A DNA stretch of 64,000 bases from a virus (taxonomy: Duplodnaviria; Caudoviricetes). Where the stretch lies: positions 1 through 64,000 of the IMG/VR virus record IMGVR_UViG_3300050142_000050, one strand, 5' to 3'. Positions 39,938-63,885 of the stretch are shown here, in pieces (positions within the stretch are counted from its first letter, which is position 1; each line of letters starts with the position of its first letter). A program made the position numbers and the translations under genes. The notes below the pieces were generated by a model. The model saw nothing but the letters and a program-made list of their open reading frames with translations. It was not told where the DNA came from and searched no databases.

Positions 39938-41260
39938 ATGACTCAGGAAAATATCCAAGAAGAAGATCTGAACGGTATTATGACAGATACCGATCTGAGC
40001 ATCCTCAGACTCGTCGATCATGATAACCAGTTCGTTGTCAGTGGTCGCAACCTCAATGGGAAGGTGAATGTCCTTAACTCTTACGACCTCAACTCAGGGG
40101 ACTTCGTAAGTAGTATCATCGAAGTCATCGCTTCTAATGGGAGTAATGGTGACTCGGTGGCTCATTGCGACTGTGGGTGCACTGAGGGTGATCAACGTAT
40201 CGGTAGTAGGTGTCGTGAATGCGGTACTTTCGTGCAGAAGCGTGAGATCACTGATGATGACAATCTGACCAATGCGAATTGGTTCAGGTGTCCTGAGGAA
40301 TTGGCTTCGGGATGGTTGCATCCTGTCGTATACATGATCCTCTCCAACTGGCTCGTCTATGAGCGCAAGAAGAAAGGTGGTCGCAACTACCTCGACGATA
40401 TCCTCAATGTCGACGCTGAGGTCGACTATGAGATCGCCAATGTGGTGAATGGTCGTGGGTTCCAATATCTGCGCGACAACTTCGATCGACTGATGGACTT
40501 CTTCATCAATGACCATCCGAAAATTTCGGAGAAGTCTGAGTCGAAGACTATGCGCTTCTTCCTTGACATGTACAAGGATGTCATCTGGTGTCGGTATATA
40601 CCGATCATGCCAGCAGCGCTCAATCCCATCACCAGTCGTGATCCTGACAGTGTCCAGGCTTCACGTCAGATCGATCCCATCACTACCCATGTGATGGAAG
40701 CGGCATCTATCCTCTCGGAGATCGACTTCGGGACTAAGCGCCGTAAGGATCGTCAGCTCAAGGTAGAGCGACAAGTGTGGGCAGCCTATCAGGCTATCAT
40801 CGCCTACAATGAAGAAGCCACTCGTAAGTTCCACTCGACGAAGAAGGCTATCCCTCGTACACAGATGCTGGGTGCTCGTATGCACCTCACATTCCGTGCG
40901 GTGATCGGTCCCATCATCGGTGAGCACGTACACGACGAACTCCACATCCCGTGGTCCATCGGCGTGAACACTTTGCGGGTGCACATCATCGGTATCCTCC
41001 AGAACCGATATGACTACATGCTCGTAGATGCTCAGCGCATCCACAGTCGAGCTATTACGACCTATGACAAAACAGTCGATGACATCATGAAGTCTTTGAT
41101 TGAGGAGAGTCCATGTCACGGTCTACCTGTACTGTGGCACCGCCCTCCATCTATCCGGGATGGTAACGTGATGCTCAAGCGCGTCACGCGTATCAAGACG
41201 GACATCAACGATCCATCAATTAGTATGACGCCTATCGACGTCGCTCTCCCAAATGCGGAT
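39938..41260 (+). CDS. nvRNAP beta' N-terminal subunit (phiKZ gp55-like), exon 1
   Basis: Zn ribbon CDCG...CREC, GARMHLTFRAVI, HRPPSI; ends in NAD of the catalytic NADxDGD motif. Confidence 0.88.
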
Positions 41261-41627
41261 TAACTATTAGTCCTACGTCATCGAGAGGTGACGGTAAATA
41301 TCTCCTTAATTGCGGGGAAGTCTCATTAAGTTCTCACACACCAAGTGGATCATGGAAACATGATAATCCATGGCGACGCTAATTACGTCGGTACGGTAAA
41401 AGATGTGAGATAGAGAAAATCCGCAGCCAAGTGCCTAAGTCCTTCTTGGATATGGTAAAGGTTCAACGGCCATCGCAGGCATGCGAGTAGGGATCGAGTG
41501 ATCCCGAAATGGGAGACCCCTCCTCTGGAGGGTGAAGATATGGTCTGTTCCTACATGAGAATGTAGGCGGAGCTGCCTCTATATGAGGACAAGCCGGGTG
41601 AGTCTAACGAGCTCACTGGACATCAAG
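41261..41627 (+). ncRNA. Group I intron (367 nt, no homing endonuclease) in the nvRNAP beta' gene
   Basis: P1 ggat|taa-cta-tta-gtcc with U.G at the splice site; P aattgcggggaa 41308, Q aatccgcagc 41418, R gttcaacggccat 41461, S aagatatggtc 41535; terminal G; splicing restores NAD-YDGD. Confidence 0.92.
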
Positions 41628-55258: not shown

Positions 55259-56293
55259 ATGACTGATCAAATGAAAGGTCCGTATTCCGTCTTCGAAGGT
55301 TATGCCGCAGAAGACTTAGGTGACAGTACGACTATCATCAAATTCGTGTCTGAAGACATCCTACCATCGAGCATCAATGGCGATATCGCAGCAGGGGTCA
55401 CCGACTCCGTGATCAATCTCAAGGATCATGCTGGTAATCCCATCACCAAGAAGATCTCGACCTCTAACCATCTACCTGCCACATGGATGGGTGGATCTAA
55501 CCGGCACAGTCCCCCTCTCATCCGAAAGGGTGAACCATTGGAGATCATCCAGTATCACGGTCAGGATAAGTACTTCTGGCGTGAGACTGGGATGGGTGGT
55601 ACATATCGGACCACCGATCGTATCTATCTCGAACTGTCATCTACTGATCCCAAAAAGCCAGGTGTGGTCAATGATGACACCAACCGATGGATCCTCTATG
55701 CTGATACTGACAAGAAGAAGTTCGGTATCCGAACGTCTATCGCTAATGGTGAGGTAGGTAAGTTCCATATCGAAGGTGATCTGACTGCTGGTACATTTAC
55801 CCTGACTGATGGTGAGGGCGATGACTCCAACAATGTCGTCTTCGATACGGGGGCTGATAGCGGTGTCCCTATATTCAGCGTGTCGCTGGGTGAGAAGGCA
55901 TCTTTCCAGATGACCAATCAGGATCTCATGATCAACATCCCTCGCAAGTTCATTGTGAAGAGCGGCGAACGAGTCTTGTTTGATTCTCCTCTCACAGTCT
56001 TCAACGAATCGAGGAAGGGCTCGATCATCTTCAATGCTCTCAATATGGCACTCAATGCCACATCATCATTGGTGATTACCTCAAGTGTCTTCTCGGCCAT
56101 CGTTTCTGCTACCAAGCTCATGGGTACCACAGTGCTCGATAAGCTGCGTGTCAGTAAGTTCGGGAAGGGACCTGTGGGGAGTGCCCCATCTCCTGTGTCA
56201 GTGGGCGATCCTTATTCAGCAGATGCCTCATCTCCGTCTGCATCACCAGATAGTGATCTAGGTACACCTGTCACTTCACTCCCCGTGGCTTAA
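55259..56293 (+). CDS. Baseplate central spike-like protein (phiKZ gp164-like)
   Basis: AAGGA RBS and ATG 55259; W...NRHSPPLIRKGE...YFW OB-fold motif followed by beta-helix-like repeats. Confidence 0.55.
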   Translation: MTDQMKGPYSVFEGYAAEDLGDSTTIIKFVSEDILPSSINGDIAAGVTDSVINLKDHAGNPITKKISTSNHLPATWMGGSNRHSPPLIRKGEPLEIIQYHGQDKYFWRETGMGGTYRTTDRIYLELSSTDPKKPGVVNDDTNRWILYADTDKKKFGIRTSIANGEVGKFHIEGDLTAGTFTLTDGEGDDSNNVVFDTGADSGVPIFSVSLGEKASFQMTNQDLMINIPRKFIVKSGERVLFDSPLTVFNESRKGSIIFNALNMALNATSSLVITSSVFSAIVSATKLMGTTVLDKLRVSKFGKGPVGSAPSPVSVGDPYSADASSPSASPDSDLGTPVTSLPVA

Positions 56294-56303
56294 GGAATAA
56301 GAA

Positions 56304-56849
56304 ATGATTTGGCCTTTTACAAAACGTCGGGATGTGATCGTCCCTGATCGAATGAGCGATATCTTCGCTGATGAATGCCGTGTGATTGAACGTCAGGTCA
56401 TTGCCTTGGCTATCAAGTTCAAGCTGGTGACTGCTGCGGATGATAAGACTGTCAAACTCAAGGTCTATGGTGAGATCGACGAGCCTTGGCGTGAAGTCGT
56501 ATTAATGACAGACTGGCGTACATTGATTGAGGCAGTGTCTGATCAGTGGTCAGGTGTCACTGAGGTGGCTGCCGGTACGAACAGTCTCATCGATGAGCGA
56601 GTCCATCCGATCAAGCTCCATGCTGAGTTCTGGAATGGGATACGTGATCTCCATCTGCGGATAGTGGGGTCAGTATCAGGTGATGCTCTGGCTACTGTCA
56701 AATCACGGATCTTCCGTGCTATGACTATCGGCTTCGATGAGAAGTTTGCCAAAGACATGTCCATCCTCATCGATGATCAGTATCCTGATCTCTGGGTAGT
56801 TGTGATGATCTCGATACTGTGTCGCAATTCCACACTCGACTATAACTGA
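56304..56849 (+). CDS. Hypothetical protein, spike-associated
   Basis: AAGGA RBS, coupled to the spike gene. Confidence 0.6.
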   Translation: MIWPFTKRRDVIVPDRMSDIFADECRVIERQVIALAIKFKLVTAADDKTVKLKVYGEIDEPWREVVLMTDWRTLIEAVSDQWSGVTEVAAGTNSLIDERVHPIKLHAEFWNGIRDLHLRIVGSVSGDALATVKSRIFRAMTIGFDEKFAKDMSILIDDQYPDLWVVVMISILCRNSTLDYN

Positions 56850-56884
56850 TATAGGTGAGGGGCGATGAGCCCCTCACCTATCTA

Positions 56885-57229
56885 TCAAATCACTTCTTCA
56901 GATTGTGAGGACATGAACTTTTGATAAAGATCACTGATGAAGCTATCCTCAGGGATAGACAGTGTGATCTGCTTACGGAACTCGAAATCATTGGGGATAC
57001 CATTGATCTTGAGGACGATCCATTCGATGTCATAGTGACGAGACATTTCCAATTTGAGGAATTGTCGCATCCGATAGGCATATCGTTCAGCTGTCTGAGG
57101 AGTCAGTTCGAATTTTGCTGAATTAGCGAGGATGTAGTCGATATGGTCATCGACGAATTGTACCCAGTCTGGATTGCTAGGACCATAGGTGAAGTCCAGA
57201 CACTGCTTGACGATTGATGTGATCGGCAC
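56885..57229 (-). CDS. Small conserved protein (LysM/baseplate-wedge-like)
   Basis: YRMRQFL...WIVLKINGI...L.IP pattern. Confidence 0.5.
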   Translation of the reverse strand: MPITSIVKQCLDFTYGPSNPDWVQFVDDHIDYILANSAKFELTPQTAERYAYRMRQFLKLEMSRHYDIEWIVLKINGIPNDFEFRKQITLSIPEDSFISDLYQKFMSSQSEEVI

Positions 57230-57301
57230 CAGTAGTCTCCATTAAATAAAATAGTTCCCACCATGCGATGGTGTGATCTTATTTCAGGGTGGTTGAAACG
57301 C

Positions 57302-57316
57302 TATATTACTACTCTG
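57302..57316 (+). promoter_or_regulatory. Putative early promoter TATATTAC-N5-TG
   Basis: tatattac tactc tg, upstream of the nvRNAP beta gene. Confidence 0.7.
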
Positions 57317-57404
57317 GAAATAGACCTGACAGGTGCTCACTTCCTCAAAATATAGGGTTCTCCAAAATAGGAGTTCTCTCTTTTCACAAAAGGGGTCAAC
57401 ACAA

Positions 57405-58667
57405 ATGCCTAGTAATATTGGCAAGGAATATCCCTATCTTGCAAACACCACAATGGACGTTCGTCTGTTGGGTATGCCATATCTACTCACATCGTTCCCA
57501 CAGCAGATCTCAGGATCTCGTGGTGACATGTACAACCACCACCAAGCACAAGCGATGGTGCTCAATAAGCCGGGTCTGGCTGGTGTGTTCTCTGGATTGG
57601 AACCTCAGTTCCGTGAACACATGGTGGAACCTCTAACGCGTCCGCATCGGGTGAAGGTCCTCAGGGTCATTCCGAAGTACCGCAGGGGTTTCATGGACAA
57701 CTGGGCCAAGAATTGTCCAGAGCGTTATGTGATCGTCGAGACAGAGGAAACCAATCCCAAGACCGGAAACAAGTTCGGTAGGTTGGACGTCTTGACGATC
57801 AGTACCTATTACGAAGGTGCTAATGGATTCGGCTATCTGCCGATCCTCAAGAATGTGGACAAGCTGACAGTCGGAGCCTATCTGGATCCTGACATGATCT
57901 TCTCCCATTCCCCTGGGATCATCGGTGACGATTATGGCTTCGGTGTGGATCTCAATGTGATCTATGGATCCTTTGCTGAGACCATCGAGGATGCTTTCGT
58001 CATCAGTGAATCAGCAGCGAAGAAGCTGGAGACCACTGAGGTCAAGTCCCACATCATCAATGTGGTACCTGATCGTCGTCCCCTCAACCTCTATGGTGAC
58101 GATAGTCTCCCGCAGTTCCTCCCCAACATCGGGGACTTCGTGCGTGAAGATGGTATCCTCTGCGGGCAGCGTCCTTCGCACTGGGCGACTGTGGCAGCTG
58201 ATGCTGATCCTAATGCCCTCAAGGAGGTATTGCCCTTCCAGGACAAGTTGTGGCGTCCTGCTGGCATGACTGGTGACACTAAGGTGATCGACGTCACCTT
58301 TGCAGCTAACCTGAACAACATCGGTGATTGTTATCCCCAAGTGGAGCGGCACATCAGCGACTATGTGACTGGGTGCTGTAAGTCACTGCTGGAAGTCTTC
58401 TACCAGTACTGTGAGCCGATTGGGAATCGTCCTCCTCTCCTCACTCCAACAAATCGCATGAACGAACTCTTCGTCCGTGCGTTCAAGCACTTCATCGGGA
58501 TGGGAGGACGCGATGTCCGTCTCGATGGTATCTTCAAGTCCGAGATGAAGCGTAGTCAGCTGGAAGGATTCGACGGACGTCCTGTCGAGTTCATTCAGGC
58601 TAAGGTGGTGACAGCTAAACGCCGTAAGGTGACTGCTACATCGAAGCTTACTGATAAATCGGGTGGT
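57405..58667 (+). CDS. nvRNAP beta C-terminal subunit (phiKZ gp71-73-like), exon 1
   Basis: SRGDMYNHHQAQA, GVDLNVIYGSFAETIEDAFVIS, ends KLTDKSGG; RBS and ATG at 57405. Confidence 0.87.
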
Positions 58668-59028
58668 TTACACTAAGCCTCCATAATCTGAGAAGGTTAT
58701 GGAAATCTCCTCTAATTGCGGGGAAGCCCTTAGAGCTCAAGATACCAAGTCTGAGAATAACTCTCTCAGATGGCCGATGTAATCAATCGGGTATGGTAAC
58801 AACTCTTGAGATTGGGTAATCGCGCAGCCAAGCAGGGCCTCTATGGGGTTTTGAAGGTCCAACGGCTAACCGCTTACCACGGTGTAGGAGTCAGTGACTC
58901 CGAAATGGGGAGCACCCTACTCTAACGAGAGGGTGAAGATATAGTCTGCTCACATGTGAGAGCATGTGCGGAGCTGCCTCTATACGAGGACGAGCCGGGT
59001 GAGTCTAACGAACTCACTGGACAGTAGG
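58668..59028 (+). ncRNA. Group I intron (361 nt, no homing endonuclease) in the nvRNAP beta gene
   Basis: P1 ggt|tta-cac-taa-gcc with U.G; P aattgcggggaa 58714, R gtccaacggcta 58857, S aagatatagtc 58936; terminal G; splicing gives KLTDKSGG-KGV, aligning with the beta motif KLAGRHGNKGV. Confidence 0.9.
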
Positions 59029-60243
59029 AAAGGAGTCAGTGCCGTAATCTGGCCTGATAGCTATATGCCCGTCGATGAGTACGGCAACGTAGCTGAAGTG
59101 ATGATCGGTGGCTCCACATTCGTGAGCCGTAATAATCCGAGTGGTCCCATCGAAGTGGGAATCAACTTCATCAGCGAGATTGTCAGGAAGCGTGCTCACA
59201 CGATCAAGGTATCGTCCGGTACTGAGGAAGCCTTGAAGGAAGTCCTCGAATGGTGCAAAGATGTCAATCCGATGTATCACAAGGTCATCGAGGAAACATA
59301 CACCACACCGGTTCAGCGTGAAGCCTTCTTGAACGACATGCTCAAGCAGTTCCGAGTATGGGCTCCGCCTACGTTGGATACGTTTGCGCCGACGGAGGAG
59401 GATCGTCTTAACGTCCTCAGGAACTTCTCGATGTGGTCTGAGAAGTATGGTGCGTATCCGACACACATCACGCGCCTGATTCCACAAGCGGATGGTACCC
59501 TCAAGAAGTTCGTCTCTGACGATAAGTTTGTGATCGGTAAGAAGTATATCCTTCACCTCAGCAAACTTCCTACCCAGACAGCTCCTGGGTTTGCTTCGAC
59601 TAACCACATGGGTATCCCAATCAAGTCCAGTCAGGAGAGTAAGTTCTCCCCTGTGAGCTTGAGTCCTTACAAATTCGGTGAGGATGAAATCCGTGTTATG
59701 TCGATGGACTCTTCTGTCAAGGAAGTGGGACGCCTGATGGCGCTCTATGCTAACTCGCCCACGGGTGTGAAGCAAGTCATCCGTACGATCTTGGAAGCTG
59801 AGCATCCTACTCGGATCGCTCGTACTCCTATTTCGAATGGTGAATTGGCACGAACCAACACAGTGCTCAGGGCGTTCCATTCTTCGACGACTGCATTGGG
59901 TGTGGAAACCCGCAATACGCTGGTGACCAGTCAGATGCAGATCCCTGATGAGATTCGTCGGATCATCGCTGATTCGGAAATCTTTGTACCGCCTGGTGAG
60001 GATGATGATGAATCTCATCTCCCCAAGCCGGTGGCTACACGGCAGAAGAAGAAGCCTCGTAAGACGGCTCCTACCACAGCTGAGGTGGAAGCTATCGAAG
60101 GTGAGATGATCCTCCCGGAGTCGGACCTGGGAGTAGCTGACGTCACGCCGGTCGAGATCAGCACTGAGATCGATATCGAGACCGATATCCAGGGTATGTA
60201 TGGTGAGTTAGGAGGGAACTATTCCTCCGATGACGATGATTGA
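59029..60243 (+). CDS. nvRNAP beta C-terminal subunit, exon 2
   Basis: KGVSAVIWPDSYMPVDEYG, SRNNPS, LHLSK, KFGEDE; acidic tail. Confidence 0.87.
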   Translation, partial: KGVSAVIWPDSYMPVDEYGNVAEVMIGGSTFVSRNNPSGPIEVGINFISEIVRKRAHTIKVSSGTEEALKEVLEWCKDVNPMYHKVIEETYTTPVQREAFLNDMLKQFRVWAPPTLDTFAPTEEDRLNVLRNFSMWSEKYGAYPTHITRLIPQADGTLKKFVSDDKFVIGKKYILHLSKLPTQTAPGFASTNHMGIPIKSSQESKFSPVSLSPYKFGEDEIRVMSMDSSVKEVGRLMALYANSPTGVKQVIRTILEAEHPTRIARTPISNGELARTNTVLRAFHSSTTALGVETRNTLVTSQMQIPDEIRRIIADSEIFVPPGEDDDESHLPKPVATRQKKKPRKTAPTTAEVEAIEGEMILPESDLGVADVTPVEISTEIDIETDIQGMYGELGGNYSSDDDD

Positions 60244-60301
60244 TTGAGTATCGGTGGGAGGAAGCTCCTCCCACCATTTTCACAAATGGGGTGATCTAGA
60301 T

Positions 60302-62326
60302 ATGGTAGAAGTCTATAACCCTTCGCGCGTGTTGTCAGAAGACTGGCGTACTATGTGCGTCGAACGCCGATTTGAGCCAGTGGCTCTAGAGACCCTCGAA
60401 GGTCCCATCGAGATGAACTATGCTTATCTCTTGGTGAACCTGATGATCAACATGCCGATCATCGAACGGGGATTTCCCATCCCGGGTATGAAGACGGTTT
60501 TCCCCATGAGGACAATCTATGGGAACAAAGTCCAAGCCGGACTCCTCGAGAACGTAGTCCAGTATCTCGAGTCCCATGGATATGTCCGTGACAATCTCGG
60601 ACGATCCGTCATGAGTGTGGCTCAGGCCAGCCACAACATCTATTATTCGCACTTGGCTGGCTATGCGATCCCTCTCGACATCTTCTCGATCGCGAAGACG
60701 TTCCTCCAACCTGAAGTCGAGGCTCTCCTTGATCCTGGGTATGGGGATAAGTCTGATCAGGATATCCATCGGATGTCCGAGCAGTTCCGCAACAACTGTA
60801 AGAGGTTGACTGATCTGCTCAAGTCGTCGAGCCTTCCCTTCAACGCGCTGCGGTCTCCTTTGATCACTGGGTCGCTGAAGGAACAGCAGTTCTGGCAATT
60901 CGCTATGTCGGTGGGACCTCGTTCCGACTCTGACGAGCGAATCTTCCTGGAGCCGGTGGATGGTGCATTCCTTACAGGTATGAAGGACATTATCGACTTT
61001 GCTCTGGAAAGTCGTGCTGCTGCTAAGGCTAAGTATTACAGTTATCAGTTCATGCCCCAGGCGGCATATACCTCACGTAAGAACCACATCCAGACTTCGG
61101 TGTTCAGGTATCTGTACCGAGGCGACTGTGGCTCTAAGGTATTCCTTGAGTATCACCCGACCAAGGAGACCTTCGATTATCACCTAGGACGGTTCTACAA
61201 GACCGACGATGGTGGTCTGCGTGAGATTACCACCGATAACAAGCATGAGGTCCTCAACAAGGATATCCTCCTACGAGATCCTCATGGATGTCGCTATGTG
61301 GATGGTGTCTGTGAGGTCTGCATGGGGACCATCAGTAAGCACTTCCCGACCGATGGTAACATCGGTTTCATCGCTAACTCGAAGACTACGTCTCCGATGG
61401 CTCAGGCGGTGTTGTCGGCAAAGCACTTGGCGATGCCGATCGTGATGCTCTATTCCATCCCGCCCAAGTTGGTTGATATCTTCTACTCCAACAAGAACAA
61501 TGACATCTACTTCCACGACCGCATCAAGTCTGTGGCTAAGAATCGAGCCATCGGTTTCGATGTCAAGGATGTCAAGAAGATCGATGACCTCCAGCACACT
61601 ACGAGTGATGATCTCAAGTCCTCGTATTATTCGAAGATCATGCGTCTGACATACGCAGAGATCGACGATCGTGATACCATCGGGAGGATCATCGTCAAGT
61701 CGAACATGGAGTCCGAGGTGGGTAAAGCCTATCCTCATCTCGCGACTGAAGTGCTCAACATCATCCGTAAGGATCCTAGCGTCCTTATCAGGCAGGGGAA
61801 TACTATCTGGCTCCGGCTGGACAAGATCGACCTCGACAAGCCCGTGATGCAGTGCACTGTCATGAATGACTCGATTCGTTTCTATGTGGCTGACTTCCGA
61901 GAGTTCGTCACGACACGCGTCGAGCGTTATACTTCGGCTAACTTGGCACTGCGGGATCTGTGCAAGATCATCTGGGGACGTGTGGGTGCACACTCCAGTC
62001 TGATCTCTATCCTCCTGCGGTCATGCTTGGTGACGAGTGCCACCGACTATTCCATCCCAGCGATCAAAGATCCTGATGATGTGATGTATGCTCGTCAATC
62101 CAAGATCATACCTATGCGGAGTGTGGCTAATTACTTCGCATTCCAGGGCTATGCCCAGAGTCGGTGCAAAACAGGGATGTTCATCATTCCTAAGCGCCGT
62201 GGTCAGTTCGATGAAATGATGGGTTATACAGACACCATCGCCCGTGATGCTAATTGGCCACCCTATTCGGATGTTCTCCATGAGATCCCGATGGGCACCA
62301 ATGAGACGATCGGTTTCTACCACTGA
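60302..62326 (+). CDS. nvRNAP beta' C-terminal subunit (phiKZ gp74-like)
   Basis: YRGDCGS, LRDPHGCRYVDGVCEVCMG Zn site, NIGF...AQAVLSAKH trigger-loop region. Confidence 0.87.
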   Translation: MVEVYNPSRVLSEDWRTMCVERRFEPVALETLEGPIEMNYAYLLVNLMINMPIIERGFPIPGMKTVFPMRTIYGNKVQAGLLENVVQYLESHGYVRDNLGRSVMSVAQASHNIYYSHLAGYAIPLDIFSIAKTFLQPEVEALLDPGYGDKSDQDIHRMSEQFRNNCKRLTDLLKSSSLPFNALRSPLITGSLKEQQFWQFAMSVGPRSDSDERIFLEPVDGAFLTGMKDIIDFALESRAAAKAKYYSYQFMPQAAYTSRKNHIQTSVFRYLYRGDCGSKVFLEYHPTKETFDYHLGRFYKTDDGGLREITTDNKHEVLNKDILLRDPHGCRYVDGVCEVCMGTISKHFPTDGNIGFIANSKTTSPMAQAVLSAKHLAMPIVMLYSIPPKLVDIFYSNKNNDIYFHDRIKSVAKNRAIGFDVKDVKKIDDLQHTTSDDLKSSYYSKIMRLTYAEIDDRDTIGRIIVKSNMESEVGKAYPHLATEVLNIIRKDPSVLIRQGNTIWLRLDKIDLDKPVMQCTVMNDSIRFYVADFREFVTTRVERYTSANLALRDLCKIIWGRVGAHSSLISILLRSCLVTSATDYSIPAIKDPDDVMYARQSKIIPMRSVANYFAFQGYAQSRCKTGMFIIPKRRGQFDEMMGYTDTIARDANWPPYSDVLHEIPMGTNETIGFYH

Positions 62327-62388: not shown

Positions 62389-63885
62389 ATGGGCACTATC
62401 AACATCTATACGACGACGCTTGGGTTCCGTGTGGGTGTGGAGCCCGATGGGACCTTGAGTAACACCAACACCTACATCTCTGAGTATGCTAGGGCATTGC
62501 AGCAGTGGGACTTCGATTCCAAATCCCGTCGGTATGAGAAGGTGGAAGATTTCTACCACTACGACGAGACCACGAAGACTGCGTATTTCCCCAGGTACGA
62601 TCTCGAGCGATTTATTTCCTTCATCTGTTATTACGGACATAAGGAAAACATCATCCCAGTGGCACCTGTCAAAGGTGATCCAGCGAAATTCTACATGTTG
62701 CCGCATATCACGTATAAAGACGAACTCCAGAAAGAAGCTGTCGAGTTTATCACGGACGAGAAGAATGGTCCGGTACGTGCATTGGCAATTCAAACAGGCA
62801 GAGGTAAGACCACGGCCACAGTGATGGCGATGTCACACCTAGGTGTGCGTACCATGGTGACTATGACTACGCGCCTGGAGCAGTGGGTACCTGCTATCAA
62901 GCAGTATGCAGCGGTAGACGATGGAGAGATTTACACCATCAAAGGTGAACCATCTCTCACCAAGATCATCCGCATGGCTGAACGTAAGGATAAGCTCCCC
63001 AAGATCATCCTAGCATCGGCTCAGACTCTCAAGAACTACATGAAGTATAAGGAAGGTTATCGACACCTACCTAATCCTTCTACCTTCTGCGAGTTGCTGG
63101 GTATCGGCATCATCGCCGATGACGAATATCACGAGCACTTCCACACCAATTTCATGATGGGATTGCTGTTTAATGCAGCTGTCTATATCCCAGTATCTGC
63201 CACACTGGTGGTGAACCACAAGTTCATCCGTGGTATCTTTGACAAAGTTGTACCTCAAAAGGTAAGGTTTGGCGGAGAGTACGCCAAATACGTCAAGGTG
63301 TTGGAGTGTTCGATGGAGTTTGGCGGTCACCTGGTCAAACCTCATCACTACAAGCAACGAGGTGCGTATAGCCAATCGAAGTTTGAGGAATTCCTCTTAT
63401 CTGAGAAAGGCGCACCTCTCATGGAAATGTACTGGAGGAAGGCTATCCTACCTCTAGTCACAGAGCAGTACATCGAACTAGCAGAAGAAGGAGAAAAGCT
63501 ACTTATCATCGCGAATACTCGTGCCATGTGCGAAGAGCTACAGGTACGACTGAAGAGAATCACAAATCGTTCTATCGGTATCTTCGTATCGGGTGTCTCT
63601 ACGACAGTGCTCGATAAGTCGGATATCATCCTGTCTACCCCGGGTAGTGCAGGAACTGGTCGGGACGTGGCTATGCTGCGCTCATGCATCGTACTGGAAA
63701 ATACAGCTAGTGAGGCTCGTATTATTCAGTTCTTAGGTCGACTGCGTATGATGAAGTCTGGTAATATCCCAGTCTTTGTCACATGCTACTTCTCATGTAT
63801 CCCTCAACATCAGAGGTATGCAACAATCCGCTCAATGCTCTATGCAGAAAGAGCAAAGGAGTTAATCTATCGGAGATTATCATGA
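62389..63885 (+). CDS. SF2 (UvsW-like) DExH helicase (phiKZ gp75-like)
   Basis: IQTGRGKT, DEYH, VSAT, GTGRD and QFLGRLR motifs. Confidence 0.85.
   Translation: MGTINIYTTTLGFRVGVEPDGTLSNTNTYISEYARALQQWDFDSKSRRYEKVEDFYHYDETTKTAYFPRYDLERFISFICYYGHKENIIPVAPVKGDPAKFYMLPHITYKDELQKEAVEFITDEKNGPVRALAIQTGRGKTTATVMAMSHLGVRTMVTMTTRLEQWVPAIKQYAAVDDGEIYTIKGEPSLTKIIRMAERKDKLPKIILASAQTLKNYMKYKEGYRHLPNPSTFCELLGIGIIADDEYHEHFHTNFMMGLLFNAAVYIPVSATLVVNHKFIRGIFDKVVPQKVRFGGEYAKYVKVLECSMEFGGHLVKPHHYKQRGAYSQSKFEEFLLSEKGAPLMEMYWRKAILPLVTEQYIELAEEGEKLLIIANTRAMCEELQVRLKRITNRSIGIFVSGVSTTVLDKSDIILSTPGSAGTGRDVAMLRSCIVLENTASEARIIQFLGRLRMMKSGNIPVFVTCYFSCIPQHQRYATIRSMLYAERAKELIYRRLS

Follow-up and report, generated by a model that had tools for sequence, protein, structure and literature searches.

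The 64-kilobase (kb) stretch of viral DNA considered here, hereafter the window, lies at the start of an IMG/VR virus record (IMGVR_UViG_3300050142_000050) that measures 249.6 kb and is about 89% complete. Positions 58668-59028 of this window very probably constitute an intact IA-type group I intron without an endonuclease gene, lying in a beta-like subunit gene of the non-virion RNA polymerase (nvRNAP). The assignment is built on family membership, fold, boundaries, frame restoration and insertion-site homology, all of which were computed here, while guanosine-initiated self-splicing, its efficiency and a single product of about 825 amino acids (aa) are predicted from the sequence. A same-site intron is already known from phage phiKZ and its relatives, so that 58668-59028 is a new, distant, endonuclease-free member of a known group and not a new mechanism. 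The intron and its two exons are placed as follows.

57405-58667, + strand: exon 1 of the nvRNAP beta-like gene (phiKZ gp71 counterpart), ending in KLTDKSGG; matches phrog_3295 positions 8-403, E 6e-56
58668-59028, + strand: predicted group I intron, 361 nucleotides (nt), placed by RF00028, the P1 U.G pair and a gapless protein join
59029-60243, + strand: exon 2 (phiKZ gp73 counterpart), beginning KGVSAVIWPDSYMPVDEYGN; matches phrog_3295 positions 404-687, E 1e-37

Intron boundaries and the joined reading frame

Rfam family RF00028, whose gathering score is 50 bits, matches positions 58658-58968 on the + strand with 76.4 bits (E 1.2e-17) over the complete model (1-253), and the same match is returned when the phage's own genome record is searched. 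Exon 1 runs ...AAA TCG GGT GGT up to position 58667 and is followed by TTA CAC TAA, which brings an in-frame stop at 58674-58676; AAA GGA GTC, from 59029 onward, shares the frame of the open reading frame (ORF) that ends at 60243, and the base preceding AAA, G59028, is the last of the intron. In the Rfam alignment U58667, the last exon base, forms a U.G pair with G58677 in the P1 helix, and this wobble places the 5' splice site at 58667/58668. Joined in this way the exons read ...KLTDKSGG/KGVSAV..., a slash in such motifs marking here and below the position of the intron, with the frame kept solely by a 3' site at 59028/59029. The spliced junction is contiguous to the residue in phrog_3295 (403/404), and the protein spliced in silico shows no gap at the join when aligned with the intron-free homologues of Erwinia phage Deimos-Minion (gp254, KITDTHGG/KGV) and Ralstonia phage RP12 (ORF275, KITDCWGG/KGV); the intron-free site in a relative reads GGTGGTAAAGG. 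Seven introns with the same boundary, those of phiKZ, PhiPA3 and the metagenomic contigs L009, L010, L011, L013 and L018, share the same signature, exon 1 ending in T, the intron ending in G and exon 2 opening with AAR GGN GT. The predicted junction at 58667/58668 and 59028/59029 is supported by three independent tests, namely PHROG contiguity, intron-free homologues and same-boundary relatives.

These comparisons also bear on the possibility that a real intron is excised at another 3' splice site, or at a 5' site a few bases away, with a different junction as the result. Only 59028/59029 keeps the frame and the gapless GG/KGV, a terminal G followed by AAR GGN GT is found in seven other introns as well, and the P1 U.G pair falls at the splice position of the model. 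A shifted junction is accordingly held to be very improbable, even though the 3' site is set only by protein alignment and the terminal G, with no P10 confirmation and with G59027 adjoining G59028, and even though one relative (L019) has its intron inserted into this motif 8 nt closer to the 5' end.

In the ORF list the gene appears in two pieces in different frames, 57333-58676 and 58966-60243, the first of which is open from 57333 and ends ...KLTDKSGGLH before the stop, while the second contains ...RKGVSAVIWPDSYMPVDEYGN... Translation of exon 1 likely starts at the ATG at 57405, which has a putative ribosome-binding site, AAGGGG, 9 nt upstream. Within 58668-59028 the search for an endonuclease returned only ORFs of 41 aa or less, the longest on the minus strand, and lacking an endonuclease the intron would not be mobile on its own. 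An earlier note, made from the DNA letters and their ORFs, had read the region in much the same way. Its identification of a group I intron agrees with the 76.4 bits obtained against a threshold of 50 and with covariation in ten introns, and both of its splice sites are recovered by RF00028, PHROG position 403/404 and the gapless alignment. The U.G pair that it placed at the 5' splice site is present in the Rfam alignment, and the stop codon that it located within P1 lies in the 3' strand of that helix. It was equally right that the gene is shown as two ORF fragments, that no endonuclease ORF is present and that exon 1, ending GGT GGT, and exon 2, beginning AAA GGA GTC, rebuild KLTDKSGG/KGV, which is contiguous with the homologues.

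The split active-centre motif

The motif KLTDKSGGKGV aligns to 1065-KMAGRHGNKGV of the Escherichia coli beta subunit. The earlier note had named KLAGRHGNKGV as the counterpart, a comparison that holds although the E. coli sequence has M in place of L, and its description of a nucleoside triphosphate (NTP)-binding motif is a fair one given this alignment and the correspondence to phiKZ K386 and K394. In phiKZ gp71-73, K386 and K394 are universally conserved lysines that contact the RNA transcript (PMC7618050). The two lysines of the motif correspond to these residues, and the insertion point lies between G393 and K394 in phiKZ numbering, or between N1072 and K1073 in E. coli, which places the two conserved lysines on separate exons. 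With the lysines of the beta double-psi-beta-barrel that contact the RNA 3' end split across exons in this manner, unspliced RNA would be expected to yield only an inactive N-terminal fragment.

The proposed course of splicing follows from the boundaries. In the pre-mRNA, the exon end GGU and the guide GCC (58677-58679) would form P1, the U58667.G58677 pair marking the cut. Free guanosine bound in P7 would attack after U58667, and the released exon 1 would in turn attack after the terminal G59028, ligating the exons as GGUGGU/AAAGGA and removing the TAA stop of P1. The ligated message would then be translated into one protein of about 825 aa carrying the motif K-LTDKSGG-K-GV.

Ribozyme fold and covariation

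The elements of the predicted ribozyme, all on the + strand, are given below with the evidence for each.

58665-58679, + strand: P1 hairpin, GGU/UUA (58665-58670) with UAAGCC (58674-58679), the stop TAA at 58674-58676 lying in the 3' strand; Rfam alignment
58680-58703, + strand: P2, 10 base pairs (bp), GAGA tetraloop; minimum-energy and centroid folds, Rfam alignment
58707-58712, + strand: P3 5' strand CUCCUC, pairing with GGGGAG at 58907-58912; fold, and compensatory changes in alignment columns 73-78 with 294-299
58716-58857, + strand: P4-P6 domain, its P5 extended into a three-way junction (P5a/b/c), followed by P6; consensus fold, compensatory changes in P4, P5, P5a, P5b, P5c and P6
58864-58868, + strand: P7 5' strand GGCUA, pairing with UAGUC at 58942-58946, a pseudoknot and the guanosine-binding helix; pair conservation
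58869-58901, + strand: P7.1 (ACCG with CGGU, 58869-58883) and P7.2 (GGAGUC with GACUCC, 58887-58901); consensus fold, covariation
58913-58935, + strand: P8 hairpin; Rfam alignment, consensus fold
58951-58968, + strand: P9 hairpin, 7 bp, GAGA tetraloop; Rfam alignment, folds
58969-59028, + strand: 3' extension with P9.1, P9.2 (58999-59017) and the terminal G59028; folds, P9.2 co-varying

Folding of the single sequence recovers P2, P3, the extended P5 junction, P6, P7.1, P7.2, P8, P9 and P9.2. Covariation was assessed in an alignment of ten introns, comprising 58668-59028, its two sisters in the same genome, the PhiPA3 and phiKZ introns and five metagenomic ones, phiKZ and L010 being poorly aligned in their 5' parts. 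Compensatory changes on both sides occur at 55 of the 72 predicted pairs and in every helix from P3 to P9.2. As a nested fold cannot show the pseudoknot, the P7 pairs were scored separately by script; P7 is paired wherever both of its strands align, the fifth pair being gapped in one row, and at two positions both partners have changed. The core helices are all intact, as is the conserved sequence of J8/7-P7. The presence of P7.1 and P7.2 between P7 and P3 is a criterion of subgroup IA, to which the intron is assigned on these two helices, both of which co-vary. The guide sequence also tracks the exon, with GGU opposite GCC in 58668-59028, PhiPA3 and L009, GCU opposite GGC in L011 and L013, and AAU opposite GUU in L018, and this co-change is direct comparative evidence for the predicted 5' splice site.

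Several observations weigh against an actively splicing intron. A P10 helix was looked for by eye, but AAAGGA (59029-59034) is not complementary to the bases on the 5' side of G58677; P10 is dispensable in many group I introns, however, and its absence is compatible with membership. P1 has only three exon base pairs, two further pairs being possible past a U.U mismatch but competing with P2, the minimum-energy fold is only moderately better than those of shuffled sequences (z -2.96), and none of the public runs listed as containing the stretch is an RNA run. In phiKZ, moreover, a long-read transcriptome gave no evidence of splicing at the predicted introns under the conditions used (PMC10914365), so that for this closest characterised relative the main support for splicing is that a fused gp71-73 subunit exists.

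The same points would be met by a decayed, non-splicing intron, in which P10 is weak and P1 short, and with which the gene would either give the subunit in two separate polypeptides or be non-functional. The negative outcome for the phiKZ introns in the long-read transcriptome (PMC10914365) agrees with such decay, a GTG-start ORF from 58966 runs into exon 2, and one more split might be tolerated in an enzyme that is already split, RNAP subunits of jumbo phages being naturally divided into separate genes (PMC7598289). This explanation is nonetheless judged improbable, for the core helices and J8/7-P7 are intact, compensatory change has preserved their pairing, the score is level with those of the sister introns and the guide sequence still complements its own exon. 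The break at the G/K position, moreover, falls within a contiguous active-centre loop, in a beta-barrel strand, and not between domains; 58966 is not preceded by an evident ribosome-binding site, and the first 21 codons of the ORF starting there would be intron-coded; and the same arrangement is kept in nineteen independent homologue clusters.

Same-site introns in phiKZ, PhiPA3 and metagenomic relatives

The earlier note had suggested comparing the insertion site with the phiKZ gp71-73 and PhiPA3 introns, and the codon boundary proves to be identical, which strengthens the reading as an intact intron and at the same time makes the finding less new. PMC10914365 cites a 2002 prediction of group I introns in phiKZ, with gp56, gp72 and gp179 as their endonucleases, and publications refer to the interrupted phiKZ subunit as the fused gp71-73. 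The phiKZ intron lies in the same host gene, within the same gene order and at the same codon boundary, between the GGT of the second glycine and the AAR lysine (GG/KGV): in the phiKZ DNA, exon 1 ends CAT GGT GGT and exon 2 starts AAG GGC GTC (CATGGTGGT/AAT...ACG/AAGGGCGTC), and chain C of the solved structure 7OGP contains the joined HGGKGV. It belongs to the same family (RF00028, 87.6 bits) and shares P7.1, P7.2 and a similar 3' tail. In contrast to 58668-59028, which has 361 nt, a 3-nt P1 loop and no ORF, the phiKZ intron extends over 1218 nt with the HNH endonuclease gp72 in its P1 loop and is without the extended P5a/b/c region. The aligned cores are about 54% identical and the host proteins about 25%.

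PhiPA3, a cultured Pseudomonas phage, has an intron at the same insertion point in the region of gene 065 (CACGGTGGT/...AAAAAG/AAAGGAGTA), a locus annotated only as a fragmented RNAP beta gene. This intron is closer in structure, sharing the extended P5 and the GCC guide with 65% identity over the alignment, and differs in being longer, at 450 nt, its P1 loop being larger by about 110 bases. Neither an endonuclease homologue nor a Pfam-type ORF came to light in it, although its ORFs were not listed.

Among the metagenomic relatives, RF00028 matches four of five (L009, L011, L013 and L018) with 74-110 bits, the fifth (L010) reaching 37 bits, below the cut-off. Those of L009, L011 and L013 have the same boundary and architecture and are 62-66% identical to 58668-59028, and the host proteins of L009-L011 and L013 are about 40% identical to that of this phage. 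L009 and L011 carry an HNH_3/NUMOD1 ORF of 311-312 aa and L010 an ORF of 220 aa, in each case in the P1 loop, unlike 58668-59028, which has none; L013 resembles it in being ORF-less, at 345 nt. P5a/b/c, P7.1/7.2 and P9.2 are common to the ORF-less same-site forms and also to L009 and L011. Across all same-site introns the ribozyme is alignable with 54-66% identity over 280-351 bases, and the x/KGV boundary is identical in phiKZ, PhiPA3, L009, L010, L011, L013 and L018. The intron in the window is best placed in a lineage that sits at the GG/KGV codon boundary in many uncultivated relatives as well as in phiKZ and PhiPA3, and the use of the same active-site codon in distant phages points to long-term or repeated occupation by one intron lineage.

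Three further contigs show variations at or near this site. L016, a distant relative (55 bits), was left out of the junction comparison because its exon 1 ends GGC, without the final T, and its exact 5' site is unclear. In L019 (2287-2574) the 5' splice site lies about 8 nt further upstream in the motif, after an R codon plus 1 nt, and L020 (4198-4779) has two tandem RF00028 matches, of 69.6 and 78.5 bits, in the same gene.

Phage group I introns exist in ORF-containing and ORF-less forms. The occurrence of both forms in essential genes is treated in review text (PMC12908238). The introns of phage T4 in td, nrdB and nrdD (sunY), of group IA2, are likewise self-splicing ribozymes in conserved catalytic codons of essential phage genes. 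Their hosts are genes of DNA and nucleotide metabolism in contrast to the RNA polymerase gene here, and the position of the endonuclease in the P1 loop in the phiKZ-site lineage also differs from T4-type introns.

Sister introns and mosaic make-up

RF00028 matches two other sites in the genome, at 41251-41567 and at 109629-109968 on the minus strand.

39938-41260, + strand: exon 1 of the gene carrying intron 1, up to the NAD/YDGD boundary
41261-41627, + strand: intron 1, ORF-less, 367 nt, 76.5 bits; splits the catalytic NAD/YDGD motif of a gp55-like beta' subunit (phrog_2987)
41628 to about 41805, + strand: exon 2 of the gene carrying intron 1
C1:109629-109968 of the genome, equal to L003:1501-1840, - strand: intron 3, RF00028, 75.2 bits

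Introns 1 and 3 are of the same family as 58668-59028 and similar in size but lie in different host genes and insertion motifs. Intron 3 is accompanied by an ORF for a 443-aa HNH endonuclease (L003:1809-3140, minus strand) and is located upstream of a gene weakly matching the virion-RNAP PHROG phrog_3148. All three introns are found in genes for RNA polymerase, and in phiKZ the corresponding three genes carry introns; the insertion position was compared for 58668-59028 only.

The sequence of 58668-59028 has different affinities along its length. When window positions 58860-59023 were compared with 41460-41622 and with L003, the P7-P8 segment was 89% identical to intron 3 and the module from P9 to the 3' end 80% identical to intron 1, whereas the P2-P6 half is closest (63-66%) to the same-site introns of other phages. 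These identities suggest module exchange or recombination among the three introns of the genome.

Fragmented gene calls and a possible protective role

The consequence of such introns for annotation can be seen in the homologue clusters of exon 1 in a protein collection (P0001-P0052, n=52), 32 of which are full-length; another 19, each about 400 aa long, are fragments that end within or immediately behind a K-x-[ST]-x-x-x-G-x motif. Gene callers thus routinely report an essential RNAP subunit as two unrelated proteins, and automated annotation of jumbo phages systematically breaks this subunit. With the present case the known pattern reaches a very distant relative, the RNAP proteins of the leaf-litter phage being about 25% identical to those of phiKZ, and the natural pairs of introns with and without an endonuclease offer material for work on how introns are gained and lost and on how phages compete.

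Why an intron without an endonuclease should be kept might be explained by protection, though this is a tentative idea and on balance a doubtful one. Occupancy of GG/KGV would destroy the target of a gp72-like HNH endonuclease and so shield the nvRNAP gene, and the three RNAP introns would evolve together, gene conversion passing modules between them. A PhiPA3 intron endonuclease has reportedly been shown to act against phiKZ in interference competition. The mosaic make-up, with P2-P6, P7-P8 and the 3' module of different affinity, fits such a picture of protection and module exchange; if it were true, the HNH homing endonucleases of co-infecting relatives would lose their target in the nvRNAP gene.

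The interrupted gene and its neighbourhood

Several lines of comparison identify the gene, which is placed among the following downstream neighbours.

60254-62326, + strand: beta'-like subunit gene (phiKZ gp74 counterpart), the next gene; phrog_3015, E 2e-71
62389-63885: helicase (gp75 position)

Pfam gave no match for exon 1 alone, exon 2 alone or the neighbouring gene, so that PHROGs were needed for gene identification; phrog_3295 is annotated as 'RNA polymerase beta subunit'. For an intron-free homologue (P0002), which is 43% identical to exon 1, the closest solved structure is chain C of the phiKZ nvRNAP (7OGP, 'PHIKZ071', 700 aa), followed in rank by the AR9 enzyme and then by bacterial beta subunits. 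The order of beta-like gene, beta'-like gene and helicase is that of phiKZ gp71-73, gp74 and gp75 and is the same in Deimos-Minion, RP12 and phiKZ, and the beta'-like gene at 60254-62326 identifies the locus as the gp71-73/gp74/gp75 block. From this evidence, 58668-59028 is predicted to interrupt the gene encoding the nvRNAP's C-terminal beta-like subunit, the counterpart of phiKZ gp71-73. A megablast search of a cultured-phage collection with 57300-60300 returned zero matches, and a search of IMG/VR viral contigs with exon 1 alone likewise found zero relatives; the virus appears to be a phage without a close cultured relative.

The same DNA is present in many leaf-litter metagenome runs, a fact that bears on whether the insert could be foreign to the phage genome and joined to it by a chimeric or otherwise faulty assembly. 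The window does come from a metagenome assembly, and repeats common to the genome's three introns could mislead assembly software. Against this, 24 of the 24 listed runs contain 88-100% of the sampled words of the stretch, both exon-intron junctions are bridged by contigs in three of the four leaf-litter runs examined, and a separate JGI contig (L008) carries an identical intron, so that an assembly artefact is barely credible. No join skipping the intron was found among the contigs of the four leaf-litter runs; contigs drop rare variants, and intron-free alleles may therefore exist.

Contig L008 (JGI sample 3300054974), compared with window positions 55610-59482, is identical in intron and exon 2 and has an indel of 60 nt (20 codons) in exon 1 near 58220-58280. 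Its standing as an independent 95% relative was rejected, as it represents the same phage from another sample, and it was not counted as support. Elsewhere in the window, a transfer RNA gene is found at 2819-2882 on the + strand (RF00005, 37.4 bits).

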